Below, one piece after another: positions 1,631 to 61,412 of a stretch of 64,000 nucleotides of DNA; the first letter of the stretch is position 1, and each line of letters begins with the position of its first letter. A program made the translations under genes and the position numbers. The notes below the pieces were generated by a model. That model saw only the letters and a list, made by a program, of their open reading frames with translations, had not been told where the DNA came from and made no database searches. Location of the stretch: positions 22,727,844 through 22,791,843 of the forward strand of contig OZ316893.1 of assembly GCA_973895155.1 (NCBI GenBank), given 5' to 3'. The stretch is from Marsupella aquatica. Lineage: Eukaryota > Plantae > Marchantiophyta.

Positions 1631-1709
1631 TACTCAGAGTCAGATATCTCTAGATTTATGGACTAACCCATATCTCTAGATTTATGGATTAACCCTGGCT
1701 TTCATTATG

Positions 1710-24197: not shown

Positions 24198-26450
<2,253 letters not shown>

Positions 26451-35787: not shown

Positions 35788-36576
35788 TCAATTGTCAAAA
35801 TAGCAAGTAAGAAAGGGTCTGGCATTTGTATCTCCGGGTCTCACATTGAGCTTACAATCCAACCCAATGTCGAACTTTTTTACCTTCATTCCAAGAACCT
35901 TGAACTGCCCTTGCACCCTGCCTGTCAAATCCAACTGCACGGTATGAGTGTCCACCTCGCTCTGTAAGGCCTTTGCGTTCTCTGCTCCAATGGTGGTCGT
36001 TGTGCTGGGCATGTCTGCAGTGATTGGAGTCATCATTCTCCACTGCTGCTCAAATTGTGGACCCGGAGCTCCAATACTGAAGTTTCCCAAGGACTCAGTC
36101 TTGTAGAACAGGCTGAGGTTCATCTCTTTGTAAATAGCTTTCGCATGGGGATTCCGGTTGGTCACGTTGAGCCCACAGCTGAGACCGGCATGAACCTGCT
36201 CCAAATTACCAGTGTGATTGTACACGAATTGCGCGATTTTGACGTCCCCAATCACGATCGCTGGGTCCTTGGGAATGAGCTTAACGATCACAATCACCGC
36301 CGCCAGAAGAATGATGAACGTGAAGTAAAAGAGGGTACAGCAGCACAGCGAACACGTTTTCCTCCGCCTTGCTTTCTTGACTGACTTGCCTTCTGCCAGT
36401 ATCGCCTTCTCCTCATTCTTCTTCTGTGCCTCCAAGTCTTCTCCGTAGAACTCTTCATAATAGTTGTATCTGGGAGCCACGTTGTCGTAATACTCGCTCG
36501 GTCTGTACACCAGGGTGGATTTGTAGACCGGGTCGAGGAGAAGCTTCTTCTGAGGCTGGTCCTCCTGCGTATCCAT
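35788..36576 (-). CDS. NDR1/HIN1-like (LEA_2 domain) single-pass membrane protein, about 262 aa
   Basis: Long uninterrupted ORF; first ATG at 36576 (the frame is open to 36774). Basic stretch plus CCC, a transmembrane helix, PKDP, VTNRNP...IY, and a terminal C-x-L-x-V...C pattern typical of the family. An upstream exon cannot be excluded. Confidence 0.85.
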   Translation of the reverse strand: MDTQEDQPQKKLLLDPVYKSTLVYRPSEYYDNVAPRYNYYEEFYGEDLEAQKKNEEKAILAEGKSVKKARRRKTCSLCCCTLFYFTFIILLAAVIVIVKLIPKDPAIVIGDVKIAQFVYNHTGNLEQVHAGLSCGLNVTNRNPHAKAIYKEMNLSLFYKTESLGNFSIGAPGPQFEQQWRMMTPITADMPSTTTTIGAENAKALQSEVDTHTVQLDLTGRVQGQFKVLGMKVKKFDIGLDCKLNVRPGDTNARPFLTCYFDN

Positions 36577-39500
36577 GGCTGCTGGCTTTTGGGGCGACGG
36601 GGAAGTTGAATTTACTCCTTGTGGTGGTGGCAGTGGAGGAGCATTCGGTTGCACGCTCTCCGCTGGGAGAGCTGCAGCTTCCCCTGCTGGGAACGCTGTC
36701 TCTGCTCGGGGCGCCGTGATTGCTACCTTTCTTGCCCTATGTGCTAGTAAATGCCGAGAGTGGACAAAATCCACGACAACGATTTTCTGCTCTCAGTCAA
36801 ATTCACCGTGTCGGAAATGGAGTGGCCAAGCGGAAGAGATTCACTGAATCGAGCTTCAGTCCACTCTATCGAGCTCACTCTGTCAATTCACACTTTCTAC
36901 CAGTATCCAGTTATCGAATTCGGCTCGTTGCAATGAGCTACCGATGACCTGCCTTCCCGATTGACCTTCTTGTTAGAAACGCCGCGCTGGCTAGTAGCTG
37001 ATGTTACCCAATTCCACCTTCCGTCGAACGAGCACAATCACAAATAAAATATACAATTCCAATCTCGACAGGTCCGCCTATCTTCGAGAAGAATCGATTC
37101 ACGGGTGGTGATGAGCAATCCTGCCACATTAAGTCCCTATTCCGCTCGCTTTGCCTGAGAAGAATCGTCGACTAATTCAACCCTGTAACGACGAAGCACA
37201 CGCTCAAACTCAATTCCCGAAGAGATTCTCTCCTCAGCTCGCCTAGCTCAGCTCTGCTCTGCTTCTCTGCTTTGCTCCAGTAAATCACGAACACAGTCAA
37301 TCAATCGAGGTCCAAATCCCGAAAATTGGAGCGCATTTCAATTCTCCCGTTCTCCGCTTCGCCCCAATCTCTGTCAATCAACAAGCCGCGTCGCATTCAA
37401 TTCCCACTTCAACGACCGAAACACCCAAATCCGAACACTCGGCTCGGAACTCCAAAATGCTTGTTGGAGCGAAATCCGCCTCTAGAATGTCTCTCGAGAC
37501 AACGAAAGGAAAACGGCTGACAACTATCAGGAGCGGAGAGGATCTTGAATACTTTGTCAACCTCGATGAGATTTGACGGGTTCCAATCCCAATCACGAGG
37601 GAGAGGGAGCTGCGGCACTTCTTATAGGACTATGCTTCCCTGTAGTGGAAGCTACTCCAGACTCCATTCCTCGTGCTCGGTCGGCTTTGCATGGCGAGCT
37701 CGTTGCCTTTTGGCGATGGCGGAGGTCCCACGCAACGGGACCCAAACGCGTCGTTTATGCCTACGTAGCCTCGTCGGTCCCAACCCCGGAACTGCGGTCA
37801 GGGTTTATCCACTGTGGGCCACCAACGGGTTTGACATCGACGACAGTGGAGCTGCTTTTCCCTGAGATGGGTTTCCAATGGACGGTGCGATCTGGGCCAC
37901 GCTAACTGGAGCTGGTCAAAGACCTTGGCAGAAAGAATCAATCTGGATTCGGCTCAAACGCGTTGGCCGTCCACCCCTCCTGGCCATTGTTTTTCTTCTA
38001 ATTTTGGGATAGTACAGTAGTTGGAGTAGTGTGACCTGTTCTTTTTCTTTTTAGCGGCAAGGTTAGTATTTCCCTCGGAAATGTCTTTTACAAAACAAAT
38101 TCTTAAAATAATTATGGCATATCTAAGTGAGTCCTAAGATCTGGCTACTAACCCATTTAGTTAGACAAGGATTTGGTGCCTCTAAGTCTAAAATCAATTT
38201 GACCGCATGTGGTCAGACGTTTTACTCCTGTTTTTACTGGATTTTACTTTTCATACAAGTAAAGTGCTCCCTTCCAAAAAGAAAAACAACTTGGAGAAGG
38301 CTCCAATGCTTGTGTTGGGCAAGGTCCTTGAGGTATTCTACAATGTGAGCACACATGAATTTTGTTAGCGAGGGGAATGTTGTTAGCAAGACATTTGTGA
38401 TTTTAAATTTAATTTGCATTTTTCTGCCTTTTATATTTTTTGTGTGTTTTTTTTTACTCCAGATGGCTAGCAAGATTGCTAGCAAAAAGAGGAGTACCCA
38501 AAATGGATGTTATCAACCAGGTTATTGTTAGCAAGGCAATTGCATATAGGAAAATTAGGGGTCATGTGAGGAAGCTGCTACGGTTTAGGGTTTATGAAAT
38601 TATGAAGCTGCTATATGGTGAATCCATCTTTCAAATTTTGTCTCATTCATATTTGTGTCAAGTATTTTGATTCTAATGTTACCTAACAAAGTGAATCATT
38701 TGTATTAATTTGATTTTAAATTAACTTTTGGACCCCCTTTAATTTTAGTGAACTTAAAGATTTTCAAATGTATTTGGTTCCCCTCATAAATGTTTAATCT
38801 TTATTTTTCAATCATTCTTTAGTGAATTCTCTTTCTTCTCATGAAAATGAGAGAAATGAATTTGAACAATGCGCACATCTGGGGTACAAAGTTCCCCTAG
38901 TGGTTACTTTGCAAAATTTATGCACAACTCTTCAATACCTTTCAATTGTACTTTCTTGGTCATAATGTGATTTTCTTTGCATGTGTACTTATGGGTTGTG
39001 TGTTATGTCACTCACTCTTAATTAAGAGATATTAATTGTTTGGCACATACTTTAGATGTATCTATCTTTTTTATCATAAAATAAATTACATATCACTACA
39101 AGACAACAACAAAAAAAAGACATGTTCCAGGATGAACATGCTATATATGAGAAAAAGTTTTTCTCATGCGAGGAATTTTTTTACTATTTCCTGGTAGGCT
39201 ACAATGACCCGAGGTCCTGCCCCTCCCAGACTTTTTTATAATTTTTTGGTTTCTATTTAGTAGTGACTTTGCTACTTCCCTCAGAACTAGCTTAAACCGC
39301 CACTGTCCACTGTCAAAACCTGGTTATACCAGGTTGCTTAATATAGGAGTTATTTCAGGCCCGGGCATTCCCGATTGTTTCTAACAGGTCGCTTTTTGGC
39401 CCGGTCAGCTCTACACCTGCCCCACAGTGTCTCTACTCGTTTTACGGAGGGCCGCGTGAGTTTGAGAAGCCTTGGTGGGCAAGTCCTCTCGCCCATGATG

Positions 39501-39671
39501 CACCAGTGTCCAGATGCTTTTCCTCCTCCATGCTGCATGTGTAAACCATTGCAGAGTCGATTGCAGCAGAGCAGGGAGGTATTCAGCTTCGCAAGCTCGT
39601 TTCTGAGTTGATAGCAGCAGAGCAGCGAGGTATTCAGCTTCGCAAGCTCGTTTCCTGGACAGACGTGATAC

Positions 39672-41258
39672 CTGCAAAGCTTTATACCAAGCGCTTTACA
39701 CCAAGTGAAGCCCGGGAGATTGATAGGGATGGCGTAAAAGCCTTCGAAAGTGCTCGATAAGCATTGACGAGAATTTGGGCTTCAGCTCACCCACGAATAT
39801 CGGGGATCCCAAATATGAAATAGATAGCCACAGTAAGAGTGAACAGCAGACTCTAGGGTTGTCAGACAGCAACCAGTGCTACTATTGTAAAGCAATTTCG
39901 ACTCCATATTCAGCAGCAACGACATCGATTGATTTCAAATCACCGCGGAAATTCTTTCTAATGGTCACACTACAAATTGAATCATCTTTTTCTCCCTTTA
40001 CTAGTTCTGACATGTAGGACAAAGCCAATAGAAATGTTCGTCGCTTTGTAGCTGTTACGACAAGCATTCAAGGCAGACATTATGTCTTTTGATGGTCAGT
40101 CCCATTCCAGCTTTCACTTGCCAACAAAAGCAATGCAGAGATCTCAAGTGTGGAAAATTCAGGATTGCACTCACCTCCTTCCTCTCTACTGCTCTCTGAA
40201 CTATTCTTCCATTCCAAGACTTCAGAGTGTCTAGCACAACGCCCCACTTCACGCTTTAGAGTTTGTGGAAGAACAGCACTGTGTACTATTCTCTTCAGAA
40301 AGGGGTGCCGCGCAGGGTCGCAATTGGAAAGAGATTTTTTGCCGATAAGAGTTGCAATGTTTCGCGGATAGCTTGCTCGGAACAGACTCTTTTCAGGATG
40401 CACAAACTTTGGCATATCCGGAGATGTGACTACAATCGAGGGTTCTCTAGCTATATGGGATCTAAAGACAGCTGCATACCTGCAATCCATTTAATTGCAA
40501 AAACTTCCAGAATTTGTCACACCTTAGCCCAACTGACATTCGAATGACTATGTTAAACTGATGACTTCTAAAGTGAAGGCTCTTACGGCAACAGGCCATT
40601 GGGGGATTGGATCTCCAATCTCTCTCTTTGCTTCTAAATGAGAGTATCGGATTAGGCTCTTACGGCAATAGGCCATTGGGGGATTGGATCTCCAATCTCT
40701 CTTTACTTCTATTTGAGAGTATCGGATTTTCGTGTTAGAGCTGGAAGGCGCACTCTCTTTAGACCCACTATCACAAGGTGGGAGAAAAGGAGTAACACCC
40801 CCTGGCAAAGGGACGGGTATTGTTCGGCAGCCACAACCAAATTTCTGGAGAAATATTTGCCAACCTATTGACTTGAAATAGTGCAAAAAATGAATGAGCT
40901 ACTTCATAATCCCTTCAGTGAATTCATTGGCCTGTCGGAATGAAGAAGTAAAGAGTTAATGTGCAACGATGGTCTTACTTCTTCAGGCGAGGCGTGGCAA
41001 ACTCTATAGGATTGGCATTCGCAAAAGCCAGCGTTTCTCAGATCAGGGGCCACCCATTGGACCCTCTGGGAATTTTAGCCTTTGAGTTCAAGTAAATGCT
41101 TTGCCGCAGTGCCCAATTCAGGACCACCCATAAGAAAAGGAGAAGAGCAGCCCCCAACACGATTGCCACCGCCACAGGAAACGTGCTTACATTAGGCCAA
41201 TGAAGCTCAATGAAATCAGTGCTATTGTGGCCACAGACGCTCACAGTCCTTGCCCATG
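39672..41258 (-). pseudogene. Cytochrome P450 (CYP85 clan, CYP707/90/716-like) 5' fragment, exons 1-3
   Basis: Exon about 41258-40979: membrane anchor plus KIPRGSNGWPLI*ETL with an in-frame stop. Exon 40479-40175: YAAVFRSHIAREPSIVVTSP...LIGKKSL...VLDTLKSW with a frameshift. Exon about 39845-39672: FTLTVAIYFIFG...GFYAIPINLPGFT. No I-helix, ExxR or heme motif follows. Confidence 0.85.
40577..40728. repeat. Tandem duplication of about 76 bp in P450 intron 1
   Basis: AGGCTCTTACGGCAAYAGGCCATTGGGGGATTGGATCTCCAATCTCTCT occurs twice. Confidence 0.85.
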
Positions 41259-41744
41259 CCTATTGCCCATGCCTATTGTGCTCATTCACAGCTCACATAC
41301 TTCTATAATTGGTTCGATCGCTTTTTTGGTTTACGACCAAACTATGTGCTTGTGCTGCTTCTCACTTTTTGGGTTTACGACTCCCATAAGAAGGGCATGC
41401 TTCAAACTACATGAGCTCCTTTTCTCTGTTCCTTGGTTTGAATGAGCTGAAGGCCGAGTAACTAGAAAACTTCTCTGTTCCTTCGATCAACCGTTTTGTA
41501 GTTCGTTGTTCTTCGATCGGCCATTCTGTAGTTTAGCTCGGCATAACATTGCAGTTGGTTTCGTTCTTCCATCGGCCGAGTGGAGTTCAGTTGTTCTTGG
41601 AACATCATAATAGACTTACCCTAGGAGTTATTGACTGGTTTCTCGATCGCCCTGGAGTTATTGACTGGTTTCTCGATCACCCTTGCAATCGGCATGAATA
41701 ATTCCAGGTACATTCAATCATGCAGAGTCTACAATTTGAACTCT

Positions 41745-41995
41745 CTCTTGACCGAATACCTTCAATTAGGCATGAGTGAAACTTGGTACTTACCCTTCAT
41801 TTTCTTGTTGACCGAATACCTTCAATTATGCAAGATTGAAACTTGGTACTTACCCTTCATTTTCTTGTTAATTTACCGAATACCTTCAATTATGCATGAG
41901 TGAAACTTGCTTGGTACTTACCCTTCATTTTCTTGTTGACCGAATACCTTCAATTATGCATGAGTGATACTTGGTACTTACCCTTAATTTTCTTT
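41745..41995. repeat. Tandem repeat, 4 x about 60 bp
   Basis: CCGAATACCTTCAATTATGCATGAGTGAAACTTGGTACTTACCCTTCATTTTCTTGTT occurs four times. Confidence 0.9.
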
Positions 41996-42224
41996 TTGGT
42001 CATATGTGCACTTCTGTGTGGCAAGTTTGCATGCATATACTTAGTTTGCCTACCTTAGCAAAATATGTGAATTTTTTTTCAATTGACTTTCCTTCATGCA
42101 CGCATAATACTTGTTTGTTCTTCCTCAATTTGGTGTAAAATATAACCTCCATCAAACAACAATTGTTGGCTTAGTTTTGTAGGGATGCTAACTCCATTTG
42201 TTCAATATTTCCTATGTTTTGTAG

Positions 42225-42621
42225 GAGCGTTGAGCATCAAAACAGACCGGCGGAGCTGATCTCCTATGGAGATCACATATATCATTTATCATGGCCAATT
42301 CCTCCACCGGGATGTCGAAAATTTTGATTGTTGAGACATGCTGACATAGTTGCTAGGTTCCCAACTTTTTGCACAACGATAGACGACAACCTTCAGGACC
42401 TCAACTTTGCCCAGGTTCTTTCCCCTGCGACAGCTGAAGCTTTTCATATGTGTGCCGCATGGGCATACACTGAAACAGTTCCTCGCCGACAAAGGTATAT
42501 TGTGTATCGCAAGCTAGCATATGTTGCTAGCTTTGCGGATAGAACACCCTTCCCAGCAGTAGTCACAACTGCGGTGCAATCCACGTGGGAACTACCAGGC
42601 GAACAACATGTGGGTTTCTGA
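42225..42621 (+). pseudogene. KolX-like accessory protein (P2X7 C-terminal ballast-like), last exon
   Basis: Follows a TTTTGTAG acceptor. FCTT...F..VL...RQRYIVYRKLAY...RTPFPAVVTTAVQSTWELPGEQHVGF* resembles the remembered pattern RY.AYR...R..LP.CV...IR..FP.P...Y.GF. One in-frame TGA lies upstream. Convergent with the transposase. Confidence 0.6.
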
Positions 42622-42795
42622 TTCTAGGTGTAGTTTGCTATGAAGAACCAAAAACACATTTAAAGGTCTTCAAACTCGGTATTCGTTCCCGTAAAGAACA
42701 AGATTGGGTTGGTTTGATAGTTTTAAACAATAATAAAGAAATTAAGATGTTTTCCACACATAGTAATCAAATTTGATTACTTTACTAAGGTATTT

Positions 42796-44433
42796 TGAAG
42801 ATCGCTCCACAGCGGTGAGCAGTTTTTGATGATAACTCAACATCATATAACCATCAATTAAGCAAAAGGTTGCAATTAACGAAACACAAGGAAAAATCTC
42901 TTAGAGTATGCTAAGGGAGTCTGGAATAGACCAAGGTTACTCCTTAGACATAAGTAATAATGGAATAACTTTAAGGGAATCCAAATCCACACGGCTTTTC
43001 AGATCTAAACTGCATACTAGAGTATCCTTTTAAAATGCCGGCAACATGTCTTGACCTTTCTTCCTAAGTGATACTTAGTCAAGATCTAAAAGGATAAATA
43101 CTTCAGCATTTAGATGGTACTAAGCAACATGAAGGTGAAAACATCATTTCCAATGCAACTTAAACTCAATGAGTTAACTCTAAGAACTTGTGAGATTACA
43201 ATGTGTCACCAAAGCGGAATCTGACATTATAATTCACGAGATTCATAACTGAGGTTTTACTTCAAGTATTTGGGTTCCAAAATACAAGAAGGAGGTAAGT
43301 CTCTCCAAATGTTAAACCTGATCTCGAACTCATAGATTCATGATCAACTAGTTTAACACAAGGGAGAGGCAAAACTGCAAAACTTAACCATCCACTACAC
43401 TAGTGGTAGAAGGGTCTTATAGTAAAAATCTACTGAGTGAGAGGTCACAGGGTCGAAAAGACATGCCTCTTCATACCCCTCAAAATTAAAAAAATGGCGA
43501 TTCAGTAAGTGAAAAGCCGGAAAAATGGCTAAGTATGAACTCGTAACTAGTAACTATTAACTCGTAATTGTCTGTCTATCGTAACTCGTAATCGGAAACT
43601 TAGTAACTCTTAACTAGTAAAAATCTAACTAAGTCGTAACTCGTAATTTCAACATAAGTAAAAACTTGGTAAATTCAACTATTTTTAACTGCCTACTCGT
43701 AGCTCAGAAAAGCCTCAAATTTTGCCAGTAGGCTTTCCTAAGTGCAGACTATACACTGAAAAGGTTTCATGATTTTTAAAGCTCTAGAGCACATTTATAA
43801 AAATCAGATAAGATGCACTACTCTAAAAACTAACTAAGAACACTTAGAGACTTCTTCAAGCTTGCTGTCGGATGTCGTCGGGTTCCAGCAACTCCACAAG
43901 GGTAACAATTCGGTTCTGAGTAACCTCTATCAGTTCAGCTTGGCGTGGGGATCCTCTTGAGTAAGGTAGGCACCTCAGTTGTCTCTCAGGATACATCAAG
44001 GGCATCCTTTTCATTAAATAACATGAATCTATACGAAGAGCTTCTCTGTAGATCCCGAGCACATCATAGTTGTTGCAAGTAGCAGCGTACACTTGAGGAT
44101 AATGAAACAGGAACTCATCACTACTCATCATCCTGGAATAGAAGGGTCGAAGTCTCCATTTGACATCTCTGAAATACCGGTTGAAGCTGGGCAGAGTTTG
44201 AGAGGTAAGGTGGAAGAGAAGTCAGTAATGAGCGCCTATGTCTTGCATTCCTTCCCTTTCAAGGTGAGCTCTTCATCCGTTGTGGAGTCCCGTTGAACTA
44301 GTTGTAAGATGTCACGATCACAGAGTCGCCAAATCTTAAGGTGTAACTCGTAAAGCAGTGAACTAGTAAACTCGTAAACTGAGTTTACTCGTAACTTAGG
44401 AACTTAGTAACTTTGAATGCTATTTTAGTTACA
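42796..44433 (-). mobile_element. Possible solo LTR nested in the Kolobok-like element
   Basis: The minus strand runs TGTAAC...GATCTTCA, with internal GTAACTCGTAA repeats and no ORF. No matching TSD was found. Confidence 0.35.
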
Positions 44434-45286
44434 GTTAGCAATAATTGCAGTCTAAACACCGTAAAAAATTTAAAAATTTTCAGTTTCTTCATGCTTTTGG
44501 AATTACCCACTACTTACACTAGGTTTCTAAGTTGTGTTTTTTTCCTTTTTTTTCATCATTGTTGTGTCCTCCCTTGAGTTATGTTTTCATGGGTTCTTTG
44601 TTTTCACCGGTTTTGTCATGTTTGTTTCACATGTGCCTCCTTTCCTTTCCCAACCGCAAGTATAAATAACTTGGGAGTTTCTAAGCAAACACGATGTTGG
44701 TGTATGCCTCTAGTGCTCTTAGGCTGTGTAACTATGTTTTCATCTATGTTTACTTATTCTTCCAGGTTTCTTTGTTCAACTATATTATTTCATTTTCTTT
44801 GTTTGGCATGTGCCTCCTTCTTTCTCCCAATTGCATTGCAAAATCCTTGGGAAATGCGAAGCAAACACCATCCTGGTTATTTGGTTTCTGAAAGTTTTTG
44901 ATTTCAATGTATCTATATTTGTTTATTCCTAGTATTTTCATTGTCTGGGTTATTTGTGATAGTTGTTTTTTTGTGTTTGTTTGGCTTGTGCCTCCTTCCC
45001 GGGCCTCCTTTGGGTTGGAACTCCTACTGGATGGCAGCACGAGGGGTTCAATTCCCCTTTGGAGTATTGTGAAATTATGAAAAAAAATTTCAAAGTTGAT
45101 GTATTTCCAAAGTTGATATACAGCGACATACTCACAACTGTCATTGAGGGTGCTAAGCGCCCTAATATAACTTTCACATCCTACAAATATATATTCAATT
45201 ACAAAAACAAAAGTAAATGGCAAGGTGATATATGGGAGTGAAAACATGACAAATGAATATAGTAAAACCTACAACTTACATATATA

Positions 45287-48200
45287 CTAAATGTCAAATG
45301 CACGACAAGGGTGGAAGTTTCCTGCCAAAATAAATGTACTAACCAAGTATCGCATATCATAGTCTACACCTCTTCCAAATATGGTACAGCCCACGTCTTT
45401 CTTCCACCTGATGCTTCTAGGAACAAGGTCACGAACCCCCCGACGAACCCTTGATGTACGCTGACGGGTAGGCGACTCATACCACCTCTCGACCAATGTT
45501 TTCATTCCAGCACATTGCAGCACATGCCATGCGGGCCTCATGAGTCATGGAAAAATGAATCCTCTTCATAGCATATTTGTTGATGTTTCCATGAAATGTT
45601 TCACTGAAAAAGTTTGCTCGGGCTCTAGTATAGAAGCGAACATTGATTGCAGTGACGTTCTTCTGCAACCATTGCTTCAAAGCTCTATGAGTAGCACCCC
45701 CTGAAAAATCCACAAGATTCCATATACTTGCAAATATTAGAAATCCCAACAGATTAGGTAACAATCCAAACACCTTATTTATCTCATAAGTACATAACCA
45801 AATTTAATAATCAATACACTTTACCTGCCGCATAGTATGGCATATAAGTTGCACCTTCCTCACAACACTTGCGAGGAAGAAAGCTTTTGCAAGGTTCATG
45901 GTTGCCAGCCCAATGATCAGCTGCTGTGATGATCTCCCTAGCCAACATGGTAGCATCATCATTTCCCCTGCTAGTAAGTAGTCATTACAATATAATTTAA
46001 GAGTTAGCTTAGTTAAAATGATGAACAAATTCATTGCTCAAGCTAATTTCAATGAAATTAAATATCGTAGTTTCCATCATACCTTTCTTTCGCATTGCAG
46101 CAACAATAGTAGAACCAACTCTTCAACTTATCACCAAGTTGTTTCTCTGTCAGTTCTGGATACTTCAACTGCCTCCTGGTGCGCAATGTGATGTCCTCCT
46201 CTGGAAGCCCTCTATGTCTTCCTATGCGGTGCACCAACTCTGTCTTATTGCCTGTATGCCTCAAATTTTGGTTCTTGCACCAACTTGACAACACTTGAAC
46301 AGTGAATCTGCCCAATTCTTGCAAGGATATTGCAGCATCAATCCCACCAGCAGGTGCTGTTTCTTTCACATTTGCTAGCTCTTTGTTAAACTGCTTCAAA
46401 AGATTCTTACATTTGTGCCATAGATCCTTTTGGTTATCAACATTGAGCTCACGAAGAATAGCATCAACTGTGTTGTTATCATCGTGAACAACCTCACTAA
46501 TTGTAACACCAACATCCTGAAGATGTTGTAGAGCACGACGAACACCAATTGCTTCAATAGCGCCTGAATTCCCAGCCTCAACTCGGTCAATGGTTACAAG
46601 CTCCACTACCTTACTAGTTACCACGTCTATCATAGGAACAGTGCCATGATATCCAGAACGTGATGAGTCCCAACGACAATCCACATATAAAATCATTGGA
46701 GTGGAACCTACAATTATCATAAATCCACAAAATAATATTTAGAAACTAACATGTATGTGCATGCTCTAACAACCTAGTATGTAGTAAATTCATAAATTCA
46801 TGAAGCAATCTTGCTAACTAGCAAATGCTTCACTACAAAGAAGAGTGACATACCATCTCTTTCGGCTAGGCTTCGTTGCAACCTTTGTTTCTTATCATTC
46901 CAGACTTGCAGTACTGGTGCAATCCATCCAATGTCTCTTCGGGCTCCATTTTGAAATCGAAACCAATGGGTGTTTCTTGGAACATGGATTTGAATGTGAG
47001 AGAATAGTTCACATATAATGTTGTGTGTTAGACCAGCAGAGAGAGCAGAATGGTAAATTAGTCCAGTAATTGCGGGTACGCCTGTAAATCATCAAGAGAA
47101 AACAAGATCTTATAAAAATATTAAAAAATAACACACAATATTAAATCAATCCAATATTTGCAAAATTTTAAAAATAGTGTAAATGTTAGCAATTTACATA
47201 CCTCTATGAAGTTCATTCTCTCCAGTCATGAAAGATTGTGTATGCCCTGTTGGGCACTTCAACTTCAATATCCACAACTGATGATGGGTCACAATGTCCT
47301 CAACCGAATACTTACCAACGCAACCTTCAACACGACAATCCACACAAAATTCCTGGAAAAATTCGTGGACCTTGCTTTTTTGCCAAAAAGCATACTCCAC
47401 TACACTCTCAGGGTCTGACTCGTTTGTATTTTCTTGAGATGATGGCTCATACTCAAAATCCAAACGAGAGTCAACTTGTACTTGCTCGGAAGAAGTAGAT
47501 GCCTAGAAAAGCACACAATAATCAGTAAACTATGTAAAGATGCAATAAATAGAAAACATATAATTAAAACTATGAATTGATGCCAATATATGAAAGTGAA
47601 GGGCAACATTGTGAAAAAATACAATACCTGAGTGTGATTCTCTTCAAAACCAGAATCCATGAAAACCATATTGTCTAATCCAAATGTAGTTGGATCAGCC
47701 ACTTCCAACAAAGGAATGGCTCCATCCTCCCCGCCATCCTCATTTGACATCTGTTAAGAGTTTAGGTTGCATAATTATTGTTTCCTAGTTGAAGGTACTA
47801 AGGTTTACATAAAATGAATGCATTTTGTTTATGTAAAGTAAAGTTCATCATTTGCATGACTTGTAACACAAAGCAAAAGGATTAGAAACCCTAAACAAAG
47901 TTACCTGGGAGTTGGACATCATAGAACCATTTTCCACGTCTATGTTGGAATCTCTAATGTGGTCTGCATCCTCCTCTCCAGACTCCATGTGGTCAAATAC
48001 ACCAGTGTCCAAGTTTGAATCATCTTCCTCTTCGTCTGAAGGTGATGCCTCATTAGGAATGGACTCATCACCGTTTGAAACGGATAACAATGCACCAAAG
48101 GATGGCTGCAAGAAAAAAATAAAAACATGTGTCAACAACAATACTAAATCAGGATGTACCAAAGACAAGACCTCTACATTTCGGAAAACCCCAATTTTCT

Positions 48201-48982
48201 TTTTCTTTTTTAAAAGATGCTAGAAGAGGTTTACTTGAATGAAAACCTAGAAAAACAAGGATTAGTGAAAGAAAGCAATCTTGAAAGTATAATGGAAAAT
48301 GATATGGAAAGTACCTCGGCGATGATCCCAAATGTTCTCAAGTCCTCTTCATTAGCAAGGTGTTCATTATTTATCCATCCAAAATCATTAGGACCCTCAA
48401 GTGCTGTTACTTCCTCTTCATCCTGTCTATGATGAGCGCTAATAGCAGCAGAGATTTGCATGGACATACCATCCATCAGCCAAGCCACCACCTTCCCATG
48501 GGACATTTTGAGGGCACCTTGTAAGTCATGGTATGTACGTATATGACTTCCAGGAAGCCTAAGTGCAACATTGCCCCCAACTCGGTGATAATCAATCCTA
48601 TGTGGTTGACGGACCATTTCTCTTGCTACTCTGGCAAGCAAAACAAGACAACAACAACATTTTGCAAATTAGAAGTCCTTATATTATTTGTCTAGTACCA
48701 TGCTCACAAGAATGCACTTATGGAAAAAGGTGCAAGAGTTTAGTTAGTAGGTTCATACCTTCCCTTGCAACAAATGCAAATGCCTTGTATTTGACCCAAG
48801 TGAGTGCCTTGCTATATGGCAAGTCCCAAAACAATTGCCTTGCCAGACGGAAAGTCACCAACAAAAAGTGGTCGGTCTCCCTCACCACTGCATTTCACCC
48901 ACACTAGTGTTCTAAAGACACTTTTGTGAGACTATCACCTTCTAGGAAGAGTCGAGGCTACTTTCCTTTCCATGCCCATCAT
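45287..48982 (-). pseudogene. Spliced Kolobok-type DDE transposase with SAP-like insertion; slightly degenerate
   Basis: Phase-compatible GT-AG exons: about 48982-48759, 48630-48315, 48105-47905, 47750-47628, 47502-47202, 47081-46854, 46707-46083, 45967-45825 and 45700-45477 (C-terminus probably frameshifted to 45287). Motifs: FCVDC...C.TGH, VDCRWDSSRSGYHGT (D1), VVHDD (D2), KDLWH (DxxH), DHWAGNH..C, SETFH...KYAMKRIHF...AR...WNEN (E). Exon 1 has in-frame stops. Confidence 0.85.
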
Positions 48983-49444
48983 CGTTCTCAGTTGTGACAT
49001 CAATGACATATCTTGTCACTACCGTGTAAACCGTGCCATCTCGCCCCGACCCTGTACGTTATGTGTAAACCTAGAAATGCACGATAGACCTAGCCGACTC
49101 CCGTTTAGTGTAAACCATGTTGACCCTACTGAGTCATTATGTGTAAAACGATCATTGCACTTGTGACTTCCCTGCTCATCTACGACTAAGTTGAAGTGCA
49201 TGGCCAAGGAAGGAGAAGCATCTCCGACTTGCGATCTTCACAAACATTGTGGAAATGGTAACAAGATGGATAGAGAAGGTTACGAATGTTTGGTTCAGTG
49301 AAGCCGATTGTTTTCCCCTATCCCAGAGGTAGGATGTGCAGAGGTAGGATGTTGAGTATGAATCAAAGATTCAGCCGGCTATTGTGCTCACTAACATCAT
49401 GTGGTTTGAGATGAATGTTCAAAATTAATGAAGGACAATGTCGC

Positions 49445-49550
49445 AGCCCTCCTAAGCTGTCATATCTTCTGCTTAGCAGATATGTAAATCAAGCGCAAGC
49501 CTCCTAAACTGTCATATCTTCTGCTTAGCAGATACGTAAATCAAGCGCAA
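49445..49550. repeat. Tandem duplication of about 54 bp
   Basis: CCTCCTAARCTGTCATATCTTCTGCTTAGCAGATAYGTAAATCAAGCGCAA occurs twice. Confidence 0.85.
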
Positions 49551-50314
49551 TCTGGCAGTAGAGACTGGAGAGTGTGACAGCTCGCCTGTGCAATCGCAGC
49601 TTATATTAGACCAAGCCATAAAATCGCTGCAATTGTGCTTTGCTTGTCGCCTTTTGCCATTTATGTCTCGAAAGATACAGAAGCGCATGGAGCCCTGGAA
49701 GGAGGTCCAAGCATTGGGTTCTAGCATTCACATTCTCAGGTGGCGATTAGATGGATGTTCACTATCCAAGTGACTAGTAAGCTTTAGCGATGGCGGGCGG
49801 TAGCAATGGTGCATAGATTGATTGATTGTGCAAGTTCATGGCACTTGATTTTTACAACTGCGCGCTATCTGTACAAGAGAACGAACCAGTGAACACTGTC
49901 TCTCCCAACCTTCGTCTCTCTCTTTCTCCAAAGTAAAGCGAGAAATTATTGACTGCAACTTTTTTCCCCTCATGAAAGTGTTTTTTTCTTCTCATGTCAA
50001 TTTTGGGGAGAGATCTCCGGATCAAGGTGTGAGCATCTTGCGTTGGTGCCTCGTGATCTAGTGACGAGCGATGCGGGATGATGAATGTACTACGGAGCAG
50101 AGATCCCACAAATCCCATGTCGTGCACCTCCGGAGGTCATCTTTGTCGGAAGTAAGTTCTCTCCCATATATCATCCTACCTCAATCATTTTGATTGCCAA
50201 TACCGCCAACTCTTGTGGAGTAATTTAAGGTTTCACTCAATTGTGACAGAAACATTGGATCGACGACGGGGGCTGCAGTTGCATTGAGCCGTTTTTCTGT
50301 GCATTGTGGAGGAG

Positions 50315-51215
50315 ATGGAGGGTGGACAGTTTGTGAGACAGCTACCCGAGCATATCATAGAAATCATTATAGCGATGATGCCTTTCCCTTCAATTTTCAA
50401 GGCTAAGATGTTATCAAAAGCATGGTTGACCAGATTCTCTCCTACGGAATTTTGTGAAGGTGGGCGCAAGGAGACACCGGGCGACGGAGAGTTCCAGAAA
50501 CTGGTTTGCGAGAGGGCCAAGACTTGGGAGATCTTGGGCCCGGTTTGTTCTCGCGACGATCATGACGAGTGCCATGTTCTGGGTGCAAATCTTCGATTCC
50601 GTGTCGTGTTTTTGGAGACAAATGGGTCTTGTTCTTGGAGACACCTGGGTCTTAGTAACGCTGTTTATTTCAATGTCGCTCTGTAAATGATGGCCTGCAT
50701 GTCCCCTATGTTTTTGATTGCGTTCGACATGGAGGAAGAGAATTGGACAGAACTGAGTTTAGGAGAGCTCATTTTTGGTCGCTCGAGTTTGGATAATTGT
50801 GGAGAGCTTTAGGCAACACTCCACAGGCAGAGTTCATCCTTCATCTTCCGGTTATACTGCTATTGGCATAACATTTTGCTCTTGTTCATATATTTATTAC
50901 TGTGAATCAAAACGGGGAGACTTGAGTTCGCTTTTCCAGGTATCTGTACACATGCTCGATCGCAGCAGAGCAGGGAGACAAAAAAACAATGTAACCTTTT
51001 CGCCTTCGTGCTATTGAGAATGTAATTTGCTGGACAAATTTGTGGTCGATGTCATAACAAGTGTAAACCTGAACATAACAGTAACAATTGCTGGCTATAT
51101 GGCTATAAACACTTCTGCGATCGAGCTCTGTTCTGGGACAATTTGAACAAGCGATGGACAATGTCCCATCCCTCCCCCTCTCCTGGGCTAGGTAACTGCC
51201 CCCGCTCACAGTTAT
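50315..51215 (+). pseudogene. F-box protein fragment
   Basis: QLPEHIIEIIIAMMPFPSIFKAKMLSKAW is an F-box motif. Broken downstream frames give LIAFDMEEENWTEL and LFWDNLNKRW. Stops and frameshifts are present. Confidence 0.7.
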
Positions 51216-51380
51216 ATATACATTGCTGCAATATCGAGAGGACGAGGTAAGTATTCGATTGAGGGGACGCAGAAATGAAATCAGCCCAAGAGCAGAAGAT
51301 CTAATCAGGGGAGAACGAAAGTTACTTCGTTTCCGCTGCATACTGAGGCCATAAAGTTCTTTGAACATGAAGAGAGTATG

Positions 51381-51540
51381 CACACTCACGAGCCTCAATG
51401 TCGTTCTCCTATGTTATTTCAGGCCCAGCACACTCACGAGCCTCAATGTCGTTCTCCTGTGTTATTTCAAGCCCAGCACACTCACGAATCTCCATGGCTA
51501 TGGCAACATGTTTTCTAGCCCACCACACTCACGAACCATG
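51381..51540. repeat. Subterminal tandem repeat, about 48-bp units
   Basis: CACACTCACGA-led units occur four times; the first two are nearly identical. Confidence 0.85.
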
Positions 51541-53207
51541 GCTTCGGCATTCACGCGAACAGAAAGACTCGGAGAAGTCCCAAAGCACTATTTGGACCAC
51601 TGACCCAGCTACTATTGCGGAGCCTGGCTGGGACTAACGGGTTCTGGCAGGGACGTACAGTAGAGCCTTGGCTGGGCAGGTCTGGAAGAATGAGCTGACC
51701 GGCTCTTGGCAGTAGCGATATTTATACGGACAGTGGCGGTTTAAACAAAAACCATCTGACATAAATTTGTGAGTCGCTCCCTATATTAGGCAGGACCCTT
51801 CGATCTGGCAACTAACCCTCTTCTTTAGATTTGGTGAAGAGAAGGGAAGGAAAATCTCAGTTTGTTTTGTATTGTGTCCCAGTACAGATTCCAGGTAGAA
51901 TCTCTTTTTTCTTGTCTCTATCTATAGGCAAGGAGGTGGGTTTTGATTATGGCCCATGATGATTCCTTGGGATGGATAAAGGTGATGGCCCCCTCACATC
52001 AACTCAATTCTGGCAGGTTTTATGCTCAAGCGGTTACCTATGGGTTCTGTATCTAATTCTGGATCAAGCGCCACAGGAAGTTTGACAGCAGAAACACTCG
52101 TGGAACAAGAAAATCCATACAATAATAATTTTGTTCTTGCTGGGGGAAGGGGGGTTTGTTAAAATTTAATATATCTCACTGGCCATAATAAAATAATTTA
52201 CAGGAGAGCAAAGTAGGCAACGATGGGGTGATAGTACTAATATATCACACTGGGCTGCATAGAAAATAGAGCACACTGTCTAAGCAACGAGGGGATTGGT
52301 CAAATCACTGCTGGCATTAATAAAATACTGGAAAAACGTACTGTAAGTAAACAGGGATGGATAAGGTCAATGTATGAAATTAGCATTAATAAAATTAGTT
52401 TGGGGACCCCTACAGTAGACCCCCTTTTATGCTTGTGTGTAAACTAATAGATGTTCTCCTACAAAGATTGTTGTATTTCATTCTCATGCTGGCTCAAGCA
52501 CCACCCTTTGTCTCATCACGGATGTAAACCAAGTAGAACTCCTTCATACCTTATTAGACAGCCCTCGATGTCATCTGATGGCGATTCAAGCCAAACATTT
52601 CCATCAACCAGCAAGATGAGCTCACGATCAAGCTCATGAATTAGCTCGACGGGGAAGGTGCTTGGTCTAAACTGAATAGACTGTGTTATCATGTTTTTGT
52701 GTTGGTCCATTGTTGGCCGTTGAACAAGAGAATTATATTGATTTAAGATTAAGATGGCAAATGATCTATCATATATCTGAGTCAATCAACCAGATTGAAG
52801 GCTAGAGTTGGTCATCGTTGTCCCGGTTGTAAGTTGTCTATGAAGCAAATCAACTAAATGGAAATAAATTATTTGTTATAATTCAAAAAGTAAATAAAAC
52901 AGTTACAAACAGTTGCTTTTTTGCCTTCGTTCTTTGTCATTTGGTGAGTTAATTTTCAAAATTTTCAAGCTTTTGTTGTTCCCGTGTCTAGTGGTTTTCA
53001 CTGGCGTCGCAACAAACACAACTTGTCTTGTTTGTTTGTCACCAAAAACATATTCATTTGTGGCGGAAAGTGCTTATGTGGTGCAAGTAGGTGCCAAGCA
53101 TTTTGCAAGAAACTTCTCATGGGGACCCTAATAACTACAATATTCTAGACTGGAGCACTGGTCAATGCTTTGGTGCATTCGTCTGTCCTCAGCATATGTC
53201 TGGTCTT

Positions 53208-55874: not shown

Positions 55875-57787
55875 GTTAAACCCACCCTCAGTGTATCTTC
55901 CCCTCCCTTTCAGATGACACCCACATCATCTGTCCACCCGCCACAGTTACTTCTGCCCTCGCCACCCTTTCCACCCATTTGATGGGCCTCGGTTTACGGG
56001 TTCAGCCTGTGAAGAGTCGTGCATGGAGTCCAATTGGGTTACCCTCTGATCTCGCACTTCCTCCTGGGTTCCTACGTCCAGCCAACGGCCTTCGGGTCCT
56101 TGGCTCCCCAGTCGGTACCGTCTCCTTTTGCTCATCTTTCATTGTTGACGCTCTACAGGCTGCTCTCGCCCCTACTCCTATGCTCCCTAAGTTAGCAGAC
56201 TCGCAGGCAGCATTTGGGATGTTGTTGAGATGCATCCACCCTCGTGCGTCTTATTTGGCTAGGACACAATCATCCCCCTACTGAGGATCTTTGTCTCCAC
56301 CTTTGAGCGTTTGATGTCTCCATTCGTGAGACTTTGGCCTCTCTTTTAGGGTCGGGTACGTTGCTCTCATCTCCGTGGCTTCTTCGACAGCTCAGTCTTC
56401 CTATTTCACAGGGTGGGTTTGGGCTTACTTCCATTGAGCGCCTTGCACCTTTGGCCTTTTTGGGCGCGTGGGTGGCCGCATTCTCATTGTTGGCCGATTG
56501 TTTCCTTATTGAGGATCGACCTTTTTTACTTTCGTCTCTCATGGAGGTAGAGGAGGGTTCCCTCCCATTTCAGGTTCTTTTGCGCGCGGCGCGGTCATCA
56601 TTACCAGATCCGGTTTGTGCTGCGTTACCTTCATTTCATGAGTTTTTATCCTTAGACCCCGTTCGTCTCCAGACAGACCTTGCTAGGCGTATGCACGCTT
56701 TCACCCTCTCCAGCATCCTCATCGAGGCACCTGACAGGGACCAAGCTCGGATTCTTTCTTCCGGAGGGAAGGGCGCAGGAGGCTGGCTTCAGGCCAATCC
56801 AGTCATTCCTCATCTGTGGATGTCTTCTGTGGAGTTCTCGACAGCCATGCGTCTTCGTATGGGGCTGCCCCACCCACTTCTTGCTGGTTTACCTCCTTCT
56901 TGTACTTGTGGGAAGCCTTGTGATGCCACAGGTGTCCATCTTCTTTGATGCAGTTTGGGAGGTGAAACCATTTTTGTTCATGACGCCGTGAGAGATGCGA
57001 CTGGTCAGGTTCTCTCTGGCTCTTTGGTTGGCGTGCGTCGTGAGGTGGTGCTCGAGTTACCTGGTCCCCCATCACAATGGTTACGGGTGGATCTTACCAT
57101 GGTCCGTGAGGGTCAACGTACTTTGGCAGATGTCGTGCTGGAAAACCCATTGTGCCAAGACATCATTGGGACAGCAGCAACAATGGCAGGGGCACCAGCA
57201 TCACGAGCGGCAACAGCAAAGGAGGCCAAATATGTTGCACGAGATTTATCTGATAGCTTCCTCCCCCTTGCTGTTGAGATATTTGGGCATCTCCATCATC
57301 AGTTCGACGGGCTTCTTCGACAAGCTGCTCGGGATGTTCATGGCTGACTGGGTCCCACCGGACCCCCACTATCTGTTTTGACCACGCACTTTCGCCAACG
57401 CATTTCAGTTACCTTACAGCGTGCTCAAGCTCGGGCCATCTATCGTCGCTCTTTGACAGTGGGTGCTAGTGTGCCTCCACAATGGCTAGCCCCCCTAGAG
57501 GACATTCCAGTCCCACTTGCCGATTTAGTTTTGACATTGGATGTGGACCATTAGCTTTTCGCCACATTTGCTAGAATGATGAGGACCTCGGTCCATTTGC
57601 GGTATTTTGTTTTTAGTTCCTCTTTCTTGGTTTTAGAGGTTTCCTTTTGCTCACTTCGTTTACGTTTGGTTTAGAGGTTTCCTTTTGCTCACTTCGTTTG
57701 GGTTTGGTTTTATCCACTTGGGACCTCTTCTGATTATTCTTTTGTACTCTGTTTGACCCTTTTTCTGTAAAAAGTTTGTTTTCTCTC
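55875..57787 (+). mobile_element. 5'-truncated CRE-clade-like non-LTR retrotransposon (RT C-terminus, Zn knuckle, restriction-like endonuclease), pseudogenised
   Basis: HPQCIFPSLSDDTHI, GLRVLGSPVG, LSLPISQGGFGL, CTCG...HLL*C...HDAVRD, RVDL...ADV, KEAKY, FLPLAVEIFG, ISVTLQRAQARAI. TSD TTTAAGACGG at 55865-55874 and 57788-57797. Confidence 0.88.
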
Positions 57788-58922
57788 TTTAAGACGGCCA
57801 AAAGGACAAGGTGGCTAGCTAACATTATAATTACATCTAGCCCAATACTAGTGCACATGCATTGGAAGCGCTCCCTAAACCCAGACTCCCCAAGGTGGTC
57901 TCTCTGCACAAGCATGGACTAAATATCGGCAATTTTTGTTGTCTCTTGCTTATGGCTTCACTCGACAGAGTATGTCCTCGGCTACCCCTCTCTACTCACA
58001 AGCATTGTCTAAATGTATGGTCTAAATATTAAAAAAAAATCTGATTCTGGCCTAGGGTTTCACTCGGCAAAGTAGGTCCTCCCAATACCCGTCACTCAGC
58101 ATGGTTTGGTTATCAAATTTTCTGGCACCAGAAAAATTCTGGCCTATAGTTTCCCCATAGTTTCACTAGTTAGAGTAGGTCATGAGCCCCAAAGTTAGGT
58201 TAAGAATTAAATTATAAGTGGCCTCTTGGAGTGAACCCTGAATCCTTCTTCATGGATACTCTAAAGTCCTATTCAGAGGGCATTACGGGATACAGTGCCC
58301 CCTCCCCCAAGAAAAAACCAAAAAAATACTAAGTCCTTCTTCATGTAACTGTTAAGTCCTGAGGGCATCACGGGGAAGCCCAAAAAACAAGAGGTTCATT
58401 TCCAATTTTGAGTTGTTATTTTTGTCCATAATGCTCTAGATATAAGACTTTACTGCACTTAAAGGTCTAATAGGTTTTAGAGTCAGTTTTTAAATATATT
58501 GTCACTAAAAATATTTGAATTTACCATACTCACACTCTTTTAATGCCATGGTTTTAGTATATAGTTTCCCTGGTTATCTTGGTAAATTTGTCATCCAAAT
58601 ACAAAACCATGGTAGTTTTATAAATACAAAAAACCAAAACCATGGCAGTTTCATAAATATAAAAAAGAACAGTGAAGGTTAGAACATCTTTTGTGGCAAA
58701 CCACTTAAAAGCGAGATGTATGCTTGATGGGCCCCCCGGTGAACCTTTCTTACCTGATGGGCCCCTAGGTAACTTTTTTTACCAAGTAGGACCCCTCTTA
58801 ATGACCAGTACACCTGTTCTTGTGTGGTGCCTACTATGAAGGGTGACTCCAAGCAAACTGCACAGTTGAACCGTGCGGTCAACCTTGCATGGTCGACCGA
58901 GAAACCACGGAGATGATTTGGG

Positions 58923-59454
58923 AGAAACCGCAAAAAGCAACTGCCGCTGTCGAAACTATGATTTGAAGACAATATGCATTATGTCTTCGGATTCAATGGG
59001 TTAATGCCTGAAGACTCAATGGATTATGTCTTCCCGTGTTTCAAGGTTTAGGGTTTAGGGTGTACCCCGACACCTTTGGGTCTGTCTTCTTTTGAAATTG
59101 TTTGTATGCATTGCACAGGGAGTATTACCATTTTTTGAGCGCAATTGTCAATCATTTGCCAATTTTTGTTGTGGCGGCAGTAGGCAAATTCTGAACATTG
59201 AACTTGAATATTCTTTGTGGACATTTGGAGGTACCCCACACTGACGTTGACAGTCGTGCATGAAAACATCATGAAAAACTCATGCGCGCAACATGAAAAA
59301 CATACCTAATAACTACCCCACGATACAGTAAAAATTTGAACCCGAAGACATAATCCATTGTGTTTTCAGGCATTAACCCAGTGAATTCGAAAATATAATG
59401 CATATTGTCTTCAAATCGCAATTTCGACAGCACCAGTTATTTTTTGCAGTTTCT
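58923..59454. mobile_element. MITE (Mutator-like) with about 120-bp TIRs
   Basis: AGAAACCGCAAAAA...ATTTGAAGACAATATGCATTAT...GGGTTAATGCCTGAA...GGATTATGTCTTC is mirrored at 59336-59454. Confidence 0.75.
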
Positions 59455-61412
59455 TTAGGAAGAGATGAATCTGCACCGGGGCATTATGCTCCACGAAAAG
59501 AAAAATACCGTGCGATTACAACACCCTGCAAAATAACGCGAAACAATTGACAGTTGGTGAGAATTATCCTAGGCTGAGTTGTGCCGAATGTGGTCAACTG
59601 GTCGGTGAGCGGGGATCACGGACCGGAATGGCCAACACCACTTTATCCCAAAGTACAGTACGAATAAATATTCCGCGTGTTTGCATGCTTCAGTTCCAAC
59701 CAATTTCATCACTGCCAAGTTGAATGTACAATGCAGGCTGGAATTAAGAGGCGTGCACCTTCTGCGCAGGTGAGAGCATCATATTCTAAACCAATTCCTT
59801 CACTGTGAAGTTGAATCTACAAAGTTGAATCTACAGCAATGCAAGCTGGAGCTCGACAAGAGCTGCTTCACCTTTTGAGCTGGTGAGATCGTCCGATTCT
59901 AACCAGTACTGTACAGATCGAATCTGGATCATGAGAATTTGTGACTGATGGTTTGCATTTCTGAGAGAGCTTTTTGACAGGCTGTTTTCTGTTCTTTCGG
60001 AAATCTGTCGTCATTACGTCGTCCCTAACACCCAATTCACCATTTGATCTTGTCACACCTGCCTTCTGAGCCGTCCCTGGACAGTACGCGGTACATGACT
60101 TCTGGCTCCAGGTTCCACTTTCTCACATCAGTCTGATGCAGTTTCAAAGAAATTGTGACAACAGGATGAGGCAGCTCACATTCTTGCAATGCATTCATCT
60201 TCTCAGGCTTTGGATTAGAACTCCTGATGATCCGCGGGCTAACTATCAAAACAACTACGATGGTTCAAAGCTTTTGATTCCTAAACTCTGGTCACTTCCT
60301 CATATCTCATGCAATTTGACGGACACTAGGAAGAGCTAGCACACAGCATTGGAGTGAATGATGGGCAAGGAAACCGAGACAGATCTCAGCAGTGTAAATG
60401 TGGCTTGCGAATCCCTAGAGCCTGCTTGTAAAGTTTGCTTCTGAATCCAGTTTGGATGGTGAATGTAAGTCCTGCATGAATGCTGCCACGAAGGCCTGCG
60501 AAGGAGGAAGCAAGTTGGAAATAATGCATTTATCGATAGGTTGGACCGTATGAATCGACATGTCAGTATGCCCATTGATAGATTCAATCAATGTGTATAT
60601 AATGTTGTTTGGAAGTGGTTCAAATCGATCAACGTGTAGGTAATTGTTTAGGAAATGGTTTAAAAGACGCAGGTGAGTGTTGTACTCTGTTTCGACGCGG
60701 ATCGATTTAAGGCACATACCGTAATTCTTCGGGTTCGATTCAGGTGGATGATTTCGTCTGGCGACGCATTTCACTTGGAGCCTTTTCCTACACTGTAGAA
60801 GACTCTGTCCCAATCGGTATATTAACCTCATGGCATGCAGACACGAGCATTGAGTCGAATTTGGCTTGTGAATCTTGGAATTCTGGTTGTGCTCTTGTTT
60901 TGACGGAGATGCCATACACAGGGCACAAACCAGCCAAGAATGGATGGATCCATTTGATAGATGAGTATTCATCACAGTAGTCAATCGAATCACAGGAGGT
61001 GTTATCAGAAATTCGAATGTGTCTCTGAACAGAATTGGCCTGTTGATGAGTTGGGTTTTCCCCTCCCACATACCAAAGATGCGTAATGGAATTGGATTTT
61101 TGGGAAATTCCGAGATCAGCCACGACAAGAGACCACGCAAGGTACCATGAATGCATTCACTGTACAAGAAAGGCAAAACCTGATCTAAAATGTGATCGAG
61201 GGACAAGTTCGAATAAACAGAGCTGGTGAGATGTCTGAATAAGTGTTCCTACAATGCGAAATGACTCTGATGAGCTATCTGAGAAAGCCAGTGGATCTTT
61301 ATTCACGTTTATGAAGACGCGAACATGGTTTTGCACGAGCACTTGATCCAGTTAATTTTCCCTTGAAAGATCTTTTCATTGGCAAAAGGAGAGGTTTTCA
61401 TTTGCAAAATGA

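Follow-up and report, generated by a model that had tools for sequence, protein, structure and literature searches.

A decayed Kolobok-type DNA transposon in the liverwort Marsupella aquatica that likely carries a piece of a host P450 gene

Introduction

Does the genome of a liverwort harbor a Kolobok DNA transposon, and has such an element carried pieces of host genes with it? Both questions are raised by a 64,000-nucleotide stretch of Marsupella aquatica (GenBank assembly GCA_973895155.1, contig OZ316893.1, positions 22,727,844 to 22,791,843 of the forward strand; the whole stretch is called the window below), in which the original prediction, made from the DNA letters, placed a 12.4-kb Kolobok-like element with a transposase gene, a small second gene, and fragments of a cytochrome P450 gene and an F-box gene. 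In the accessible part of PMC9587614, Kolobok elements are defined by TTAA and RR...YY termini and their plant hosts are chlorophytes and rhodophytes; according to PMC6004289, Xenopus copies have AG termini and a full length of 6.8-13.9 kb, and an N-terminal THAP domain is usual in Kolobok transposases. Here we conclude with good confidence that the element is a decayed copy of a multi-copy Kolobok-type DNA transposon, which in spreading likely took along part of a host P450 gene, intron included.

Results

The transposase gene and its kinship

Splicing of the minus strand at GT-AG sites yielded an open transposase frame whose residues D480-L-W-H483, located between D461 and E676, form the DxxH motif of Kolobok. 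The predicted spliced DDE transposase was recovered with its DxxH, but with eight rather than nine coding exons: the upstream ninth piece has no start codon and the nine-coding-exon model was rejected. Read from the ATG at 48617, the protein aligned at its N-terminus with that of a relative from Riccia (37% identity over 62 amino acids, E 3.8e-8), which sets the gene at eight coding exons and 716 amino acids, the acidic middle exons being supported mainly by splice sites and frame. The last three exons showed 66% identity over 303 amino acids to a protein of Calypogeia fissa, and full-length relatives from Riccia and Klebsormidium were 36-45% identical over ~480-580 amino acids. The D, D, H and E residues aligned across 43 rows wherever these were covered, with few substitutions, and several His/Cys residues (HW.G.H..C, RKCC) aligned with the stretch between DxxH and E in which Kolobok has its zinc-finger-like C/H motif. 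The SAP motif was also found in relatives, scoring above the Pfam cut-off in several of them. No THAP domain was matched on the N-terminal exon or in the clade members scanned, where a different conserved N-terminal helical motif was present. A premature stop closes the frame directly beyond the final conserved motif, while the tail retained by relatives is read in a frame other than that of the last exon; this copy is thus likely impaired.

Searched against 1.84 billion proteins, the catalytic exon gave 212 matches at E<=0.001, and kinship was judged from the 150 of these that were listed, 30 of them looked up individually, together with one profile search with 13 matches. The named close relatives came from the liverworts Calypogeia fissa, Riccia sorocarpa and R. 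fluitans and from Klebsormidium nitens, Chara braunii and Closterium, and a further relative was a cluster labelled Pyramimonas and Prorocentrum. Among the relatives that were named, a minority of the 212 matches, there were no mosses and no vascular plants. The weaker matches carried GDGR.DSPGH.AKY, TDRH and FDVWH, the motifs of Kolobok_1_XT and Kolobok_1_BF in Data S5 of PMC9587614; these Kol0-type proteins were recognised by eye from the motifs and not by alignment to Repbase entries. When a profile of six clade members was compared with one of ten Kol0-type proteins, 423 columns aligned at a probability of 99.9 (E 6e-36; E 0.48 for the reversed control), and the spliced window protein scored 122 bits on the Kol0-type profile (reversed, -2.3), as expected of a DDD/E transposase homologous to Kolobok. 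In a 33-row tree with the SAP columns removed, the window protein grouped with Calypogeia (support 100/100) inside a liverwort group (94/93), the wider green-lineage group was weakly supported (83/80) and included six rows of unknown origin, and the Kol0-type rows stood apart (100/99). A quick tree of 43 rows agreed. Single-sequence search, profile comparison and motif order relative to Kol0-type proteins all upheld the predicted plant Kolobok lineage, with relatives in liverworts and streptophyte algae, and we assign the transposase to the Kolobok type with very high confidence.

A competing assignment, to a MULE-, hAT- or P-related transposon or to a separate superfamily of the C/DxxH group, draws on four observations. 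Pfam PF20700, named "Mutator-like transposase", matched several relatives, one of them above the cut-off; the structural model of the full-length relative P0011 (predicted local distance difference test score, pLDDT, 78) found its best folds in the P element, Hermes and ISCth4 transposases, that is in P, hAT and IS256 proteins, at 10-14% identity and with no Kolobok entry among the matches; THAP is absent; and the termini are atypical. We know of no Kolobok structure that has been solved. However, PF20700 also matched the Kol0-type proteins, at 24-26 bits, so that the label does not separate the two assignments and is no argument for MULE. The MULE family PF10551 and the hAT and P families gave no match on the window exons or on any clade member scanned, the clade profile found none of the solved P, Hermes and ISCth4 sequences at E<=10, and the similarity to Kol0-type proteins extends over the 423 columns mentioned above. 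MULE and hAT elements make 8-11 bp duplications, whereas the flanks here show TTAA alone. On this evidence the competing assignment is very improbable. For piggyBac no Pfam or fold match was obtained, and the DxxH sets the protein apart from that group. The proteins P0124, P0131, P0139, P0068 and P0158, in which PF20700 matches were seen, comprise Kol0-type and green-clade Kolobok proteins, and the name of this family may mislabel Kolobok elements.

Ends of the element

As predicted, a perfect 17-base inverted pair (39292-39308 and 51728-51744, 17 of 17 bases identical) with TTAA outermost spans 12.4 kb. The predicted second inverted subterminal motif was also present, as an 11-mer at 39401-39411 and 51692-51702, with both copies <=120 bp from the element ends. 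Inside the TTAA the terminal inverted repeats (TIRs) are 13 bp long and perfect, in keeping with the short TIRs of Kolobok, and the TTAA flanking both ends of this one copy may be a target-site duplication. The termini read AC...GT at both ends of the one copy, as the original prediction stated, and not RR...YY, for which reason we file the element as a variant of the Kolobok superfamily rather than as a typical member. A target-site duplication of TA with AAC...GTT ends was considered and rejected; it is formally indistinguishable for any TTAA element, and several insertions would be needed to tell. The terminal 14-mer had no further match in the 64-kb window at <=3 mismatches, and the joined flanks had no other notable match within it.

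The length of the element required a correction. The distance between the ends stood, but 1.9 kb of it is a later insertion resembling a solo long terminal repeat (LTR): CTAGG is duplicated around it (42624-42628 and 44519-44523, a 5-bp duplication), contigs of the sequencing runs X2 and X3 join across it, and its own depth reached ~90-470 times that of the flank. Without this nested insertion the element proper measures ~10.5 kb.

Depth was summed over the contigs of four of the six matching runs between 36000 and 48000, everything to the right of 48000 lying beyond this range, with a flank depth of 20.8 in X3 and ~40 in X2. None of the six runs was listed as RNA, which carries no information on expression, and run X5, in which the flank is not covered, was left out. 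Relative to the flank, the summed depth was 8-18 (X3) and 13-27 (X2) over the transposase, ~10 (X3) and ~12 (X2) over the small gene, and 3.0-5.7 (X3) and 3.5-7.6 (X2) over the left arm, all of these being sums over contigs and not copy numbers. Single contigs of the left arm, one of them inside the P450 exon, ran at ~1.6-2.2 times the flank depth. Run X6 gave 10.6-25.5 for the transposase bins, 1.7-4.5 for the flank and 0-4.3 for the left arm, a coverage too low to call the cargo absent. In the best-supported 40 of 1379 rows, 16 coding differences set the contigs apart from this copy; 12 of them were synonymous, the pattern to be expected had a functional transposase accompanied the spread of the family.

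These data bear on the possibility that the transposase and the small gene are real but belong to a shorter element, the inverted pair being a product of chance or foreign and the P450 and F-box pieces local pseudogenes of the host. A perfect 17-mer inverted pair arose in 19 of 100 simulated 64-kb windows and is weak evidence by itself; the ends break the RR...YY rule and are known from one locus; and the left arm has only about one-third to one-quarter of the depth of the transposase. Yet a pair with an outer TTAA occurred in none of the 100 simulations, the second inverted 11-mer sits close to both ends, and the depth exceeded that of the flank in all seven bins of the left arm in two runs, whereas 36.0-38.0 kb was flat. 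A shorter element is accordingly very unlikely, and we hold the pair at 39292-51744 to be, in high probability, the true ends of the Kolobok-type element.

The real window contains one other TTAA-flanked inverted pair, at 14024-14446, which was rejected as a related miniature inverted-repeat transposable element (MITE): its TTAA sits within the longer, 54-nt inverted arms (94% identity) of a separate MITE-like element at 13990-14480. The left TTAA is closely preceded by the end of a very high-copy repeat (38400-39200; summed depth as high as 180-350 times that of the flank), and insertion of the element beside or within this repeat is possible. A 22-nt direct repeat (95%) is common to both arms (39557-39578 and 50956-50977), its left copy belonging to a 51-nt tandem duplication, and further short tandem duplications occur inside the element at 40577-40728, 49448-49550 and 51380-51487. 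Sequence searches gave no credible match for the 61-codon frame at 39885-40067 or the 71-codon frame at 39545-39757.

Host-gene pieces in the two arms

The predicted P450 fragment near the left end was confirmed by its second exon (40479-40175), which matched CYP90B1 at E 4.5e-4 with an acceptor site just ahead of the matching region, and proved to comprise more than one exon. A 499-bp intron separates it from what we take, by the membrane anchor and the GWPL motif, to be exon 1, for which PDB and Pfam gave no match. Across the element, heme, I-helix and PERF-type motifs had no match beyond a single loose ExLR hit in the transposase. The lack of late P450 motifs, together with the retained intron, identifies the piece as roughly the first third of a P450 gene, acquired in the form of genomic DNA. 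The depth bins over the piece (3.4-7.3 times the flank) equaled those of the surrounding non-coding arm, which favors amplification with the element, and we regard such amplification as probable. Host-gene capture by the element, as originally proposed, was in this way borne out indirectly for the P450 piece, by the kept intron and the raised depth of the whole arm.

An F-box fragment near the other end was likewise found, matching Pfam PF00646 at E 5e-4 with a score just below the cut-off (20.3 versus 20.5 bits); its matches in PDB were of the chance kind. The chance that the F-box piece was mobilised with the element is put at only slightly better than even.

Alternatively, the ends may be right while one or both gene pieces entered after the last jump or on other nested elements, and so were never Kolobok cargo. 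This would apply most readily to the F-box piece, at the end outside the depth data; the copy has already taken one nested insertion, and the search for a P450 donor gave none in 64 candidates. Against it, depth is raised over the P450 exon to the same level as over the non-coding DNA to either side of it, with contigs at ~2 times the flank, and no separate ends around either piece were noticed. Late entry is therefore unlikely, and carriage of the P450 piece by the spreading family remains the preferred explanation.

The small convergent gene

The small open reading frame predicted to converge with the transposase gene is present, in two exons, and contains one in-frame stop (42325-42327). 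Its C-terminus has the spacing R-x3-Y-x4-Y...R-x3-P-x10-W-x8-GF, also present in one KolX of Data S6 of PMC9587614; KolX, the second gene of the Kol0 lineage, is P2X7 ballast-like. The pattern occurred once in the window, at this C-terminus, and in none of 60 simulated windows. A single-sequence structural model of the protein (pLDDT 66, weak) gave matches to generic helical folds only, with a best Z of 7.5. Variants of the gene were found in 4-9 contigs of X2 and X3. On the spacing of the motif, homology to KolX is fairly probable. Four tandem copies of 60-64 nt lie in the intron, at 41748-41998.

Features of the element and of the remaining window

The features of the element are collected in Table 1.

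Table 1. Coordinates in the window of the features assigned to the Kolobok-type element and of the insertion nested in it.
Feature	Position	Strand	Basis
Left TTAA, presumed target-site duplication	39292-39295	.	sequence; duplication inferred
Left TIR, 13 bp, starts AC	39296-39308	+	sequence
Left copy of 11-bp subterminal inverted motif	39401-39411	+	sequence
5' remnant of CYP85-clan-like P450 gene	40175-41259	-	exon 2 match, splice sites, motifs
P450 exon 1 (membrane anchor, proline-rich GWPL motif, stop at 41040-41038)	~41259-40979	-	
P450 intron 1	40978-40480	-	
P450 exon 2 (frameshifted)	40479-40175	-	
Small two-exon gene, convergent with transposase, 136 codons, KolX-like C-terminal motif (exons 41694-41707, 42225-42621)	41694-42621	+	frame and motif
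Nested solo-LTR-like insertion, TG...CA, outside the Kolobok element proper	42629-44518	.	sequence, skipping contigs, depth
Out-of-frame transposase C-terminal tail	45356-45436	-	tblastn with Calypogeia protein, 46% over 28 amino acids
Kolobok-type transposase gene, 8 coding exons, 716 amino acids to premature stop	45477-48617	-	splice sites, homology
Transposase exons	48617-48315, 48105-47905, 47750-47628, 47502-47202, 47081-46854, 46707-46083, 45970-45825, 45700-45480	-	
Catalytic residues D395, D461, D480xxH483, E676	46681, 46483, 46426-46415, 45602	-	
SAP motif between DxxH and catalytic E	46223-46315	-	Pfam PF02037, E 6e-5, 23.0 bits versus cut-off 23.9
F-box gene remnant: F-box, then short stretch with in-frame stop 50684-50686; ATG 50315	50315-50810	+	Pfam PF00646
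Right copy of 11-bp subterminal inverted motif	51692-51702	-	sequence
Right TIR, 13 bp, ends GT	51728-51740	-	sequence
Right TTAA, presumed target-site duplication	51741-51744	.	sequence; duplication inferred

Elsewhere in the window we observed two class III peroxidase-like genes (9758-12358 and 24201-26489) and a gene with a LEA_2 domain (35791-36792), all on the minus strand, which fit a land plant. Two arrays of ~35-nt repeats in inverted orientation, ~4 kb apart at 1700-6600, resemble the subterminal repeats of another DNA transposon, and two segments are repeated at 96-99% identity at a distance of 15-17 kb (3094-4295 and 20078-21284; 6618-6727 and 21284-21393). The broken frames at 55880-57344, presumably the end of a non-LTR retrotransposon frame with a zinc knuckle and an endonuclease, had no Pfam match. 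Several long inverted repeats of 80-111 nt at 58719-62372 are possibly nested MITEs.

Discussion

Several points weigh against the account of a Kolobok-type element carrying host-gene pieces. The evidence on the ends comes from a single locus and one full copy with AC...GT termini; the trees were built from a selection of the longer query matches and held no MULE, hAT or P sequences, and a Pfam family with a Mutator-like name recognizes part of the clade. Run X3 may be the source of the window itself (0 differences in 2527 flank bases), X2 being from another study (18 differences in 994 flank bases); the bins beside the left end are confounded by the high-copy repeat at 38.4-39.2 kb; the depths are sums; and the 16 coding differences come from a small best-supported share of the rows. 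For the cargo, the lack of a P450 donor and the position of the F-box piece count in the same direction, and for the small gene the motif was picked after both sequences were in view, and searches of Pfam, PDB, the Atlas and a word index gave no match.

By analogy with the family, the transposase would bind the 13-bp ends, perhaps together with the 11-bp subterminal motif, and would excise the element and insert it at TTAA by cut-and-paste, duplicating the four bases. The SAP motif would likely give the protein an additional surface for binding DNA. A diverged KolX accessory protein would be the likely product of the small convergent gene. Genomic DNA rather than mRNA would have been copied into the left arm, most likely by break repair or by aberrant transposition of neighboring copies, as proposed for Pack-CACTA (PMC13317346); one subfamily may then have amplified the P450 piece, and the F-box piece would probably be a second capture. 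This copy later acquired the LTR-type insertion and its coding lesions, yet its ends stayed perfect. It is likely immobile by itself, and its intact ends could serve a transposase supplied by another copy.

A broader proposal, to which we give a little less than an even chance, is that an undescribed SAP-bearing Kolobok lineage with AC...GT ends was inherited from streptophyte algae into liverworts and kept KolX, that those of its members with a transposase take up host genes containing introns and multiply them ("Pack-Kolobok"), and that it has been overlooked or called Mutator-like in plant surveys based on Pfam. The absence of any match to Pfam transposase families on the transposase exons of the window would explain such an omission. 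If the proposal is true, a DNA-transposon superfamily would be added to land plants, many liverwort gene models named "SAP domain-containing" would be transposases and not host genes, the structural criteria by which Kolobok elements are found would broaden to include AC...GT ends, and the cargo would make Kolobok one more superfamily with gene capture; no new chemistry is revealed.

Part of this is known already: Kolobok occurs in green and red algae, Kolobok_1_KlNi stands in a published alignment, and gene capture is described in all main plant TIR superfamilies. No curated land-plant Kolobok was found in the literature searched, which left Repbase, Dfam and most subscription papers aside, and Kolobok in combination with liverwort or Marchantia gave only unrelated mentions, in one review. 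Automated repeat tables apply the Kolobok label in angiosperms, as in spinach (PMC6337768) and perhaps in four further genome notes, which tells against novelty. In PMC12973397, 1007 plant genomes were screened for 17 superfamilies, Kolobok among them; seven others were reported, the screen being aimed at recently active elements only. The accessible text of bioRxiv 2021.09.26.461848 names Kolobok in the methods only, while its supplements may give host ranges.

The nearest relatives, "SAP domain-containing" proteins in Riccia sorocarpa, R. fluitans, Calypogeia fissa and Klebsormidium nitens and hypothetical proteins in Chara and Closterium, belong to the same transposase clade as the window protein. 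They are annotated as hypothetical, as SAP-domain proteins or at most as "Transposase", none of them as Kolobok, and scans for the DNA around relatives recovered none in 195 and 108 candidate metagenome stretches and none in 24 and 36 viral ones. In Data S5 of PMC9587614, in the whole of which no name code of a land plant was recognised, Kolobok_1_NaeGru, Kolobok_1_OwFu and Kolobok_16_CGi have, by eye, similar D.R and H.D motifs. Kolobok_1_KlNi, Kolobok_1_MicRcc299 and Kolobok_1_CCri are algal Kolobok elements, their species being read from the name codes and the accessible background of that paper; the first two carry a CCHC finger after the first D, which the present clade lacks.

Like this element, the Kol0 (Kolobok0) lineage, represented by Kolobok-1_XT (PMC9587614, PMC6004289), has TTAA outside short TIRs and a DDD/E core that includes DxxH, with its motifs arranged in the same order. 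Both also have a second, small gene whose C-terminus bears a KolX-like motif, and the size of our element falls within the 6.8-13.9 kb of the Xenopus copies (PMC6004289, accessible part). The element differs from Kol0 in its AC...GT termini, the absence of THAP, the SAP insert between DxxH and E, and a first-D motif that reads D.R[WFY]DSSR.GYHG instead of GDGR.DSPGH.AKY, at ~15-18% profile identity; its clade forms a separate branch in both trees, its host is a land plant, and host-gene pieces lie inside it.

Pack-TYPE elements (Pack-MULE, -CACTA, -hAT, -PIF and -Mariner) offer the closest parallel for the cargo, and occur in all main plant TIR superfamilies according to the accessible part of PMC8903248; neither PMC8903248 nor PMC13317346 uses the word Kolobok in its main text. 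They resemble the present element, according to the same sources, in the truncated, non-functional host-gene pieces between TIRs, in more than one donor gene and in capture at the DNA level, and of these features we observed host-gene fragments between TIRs together with the raised depth of the left arm, in one full copy. Pack-TYPE elements are by definition non-autonomous, however, whereas the Marsupella element contains a transposase gene of its own.

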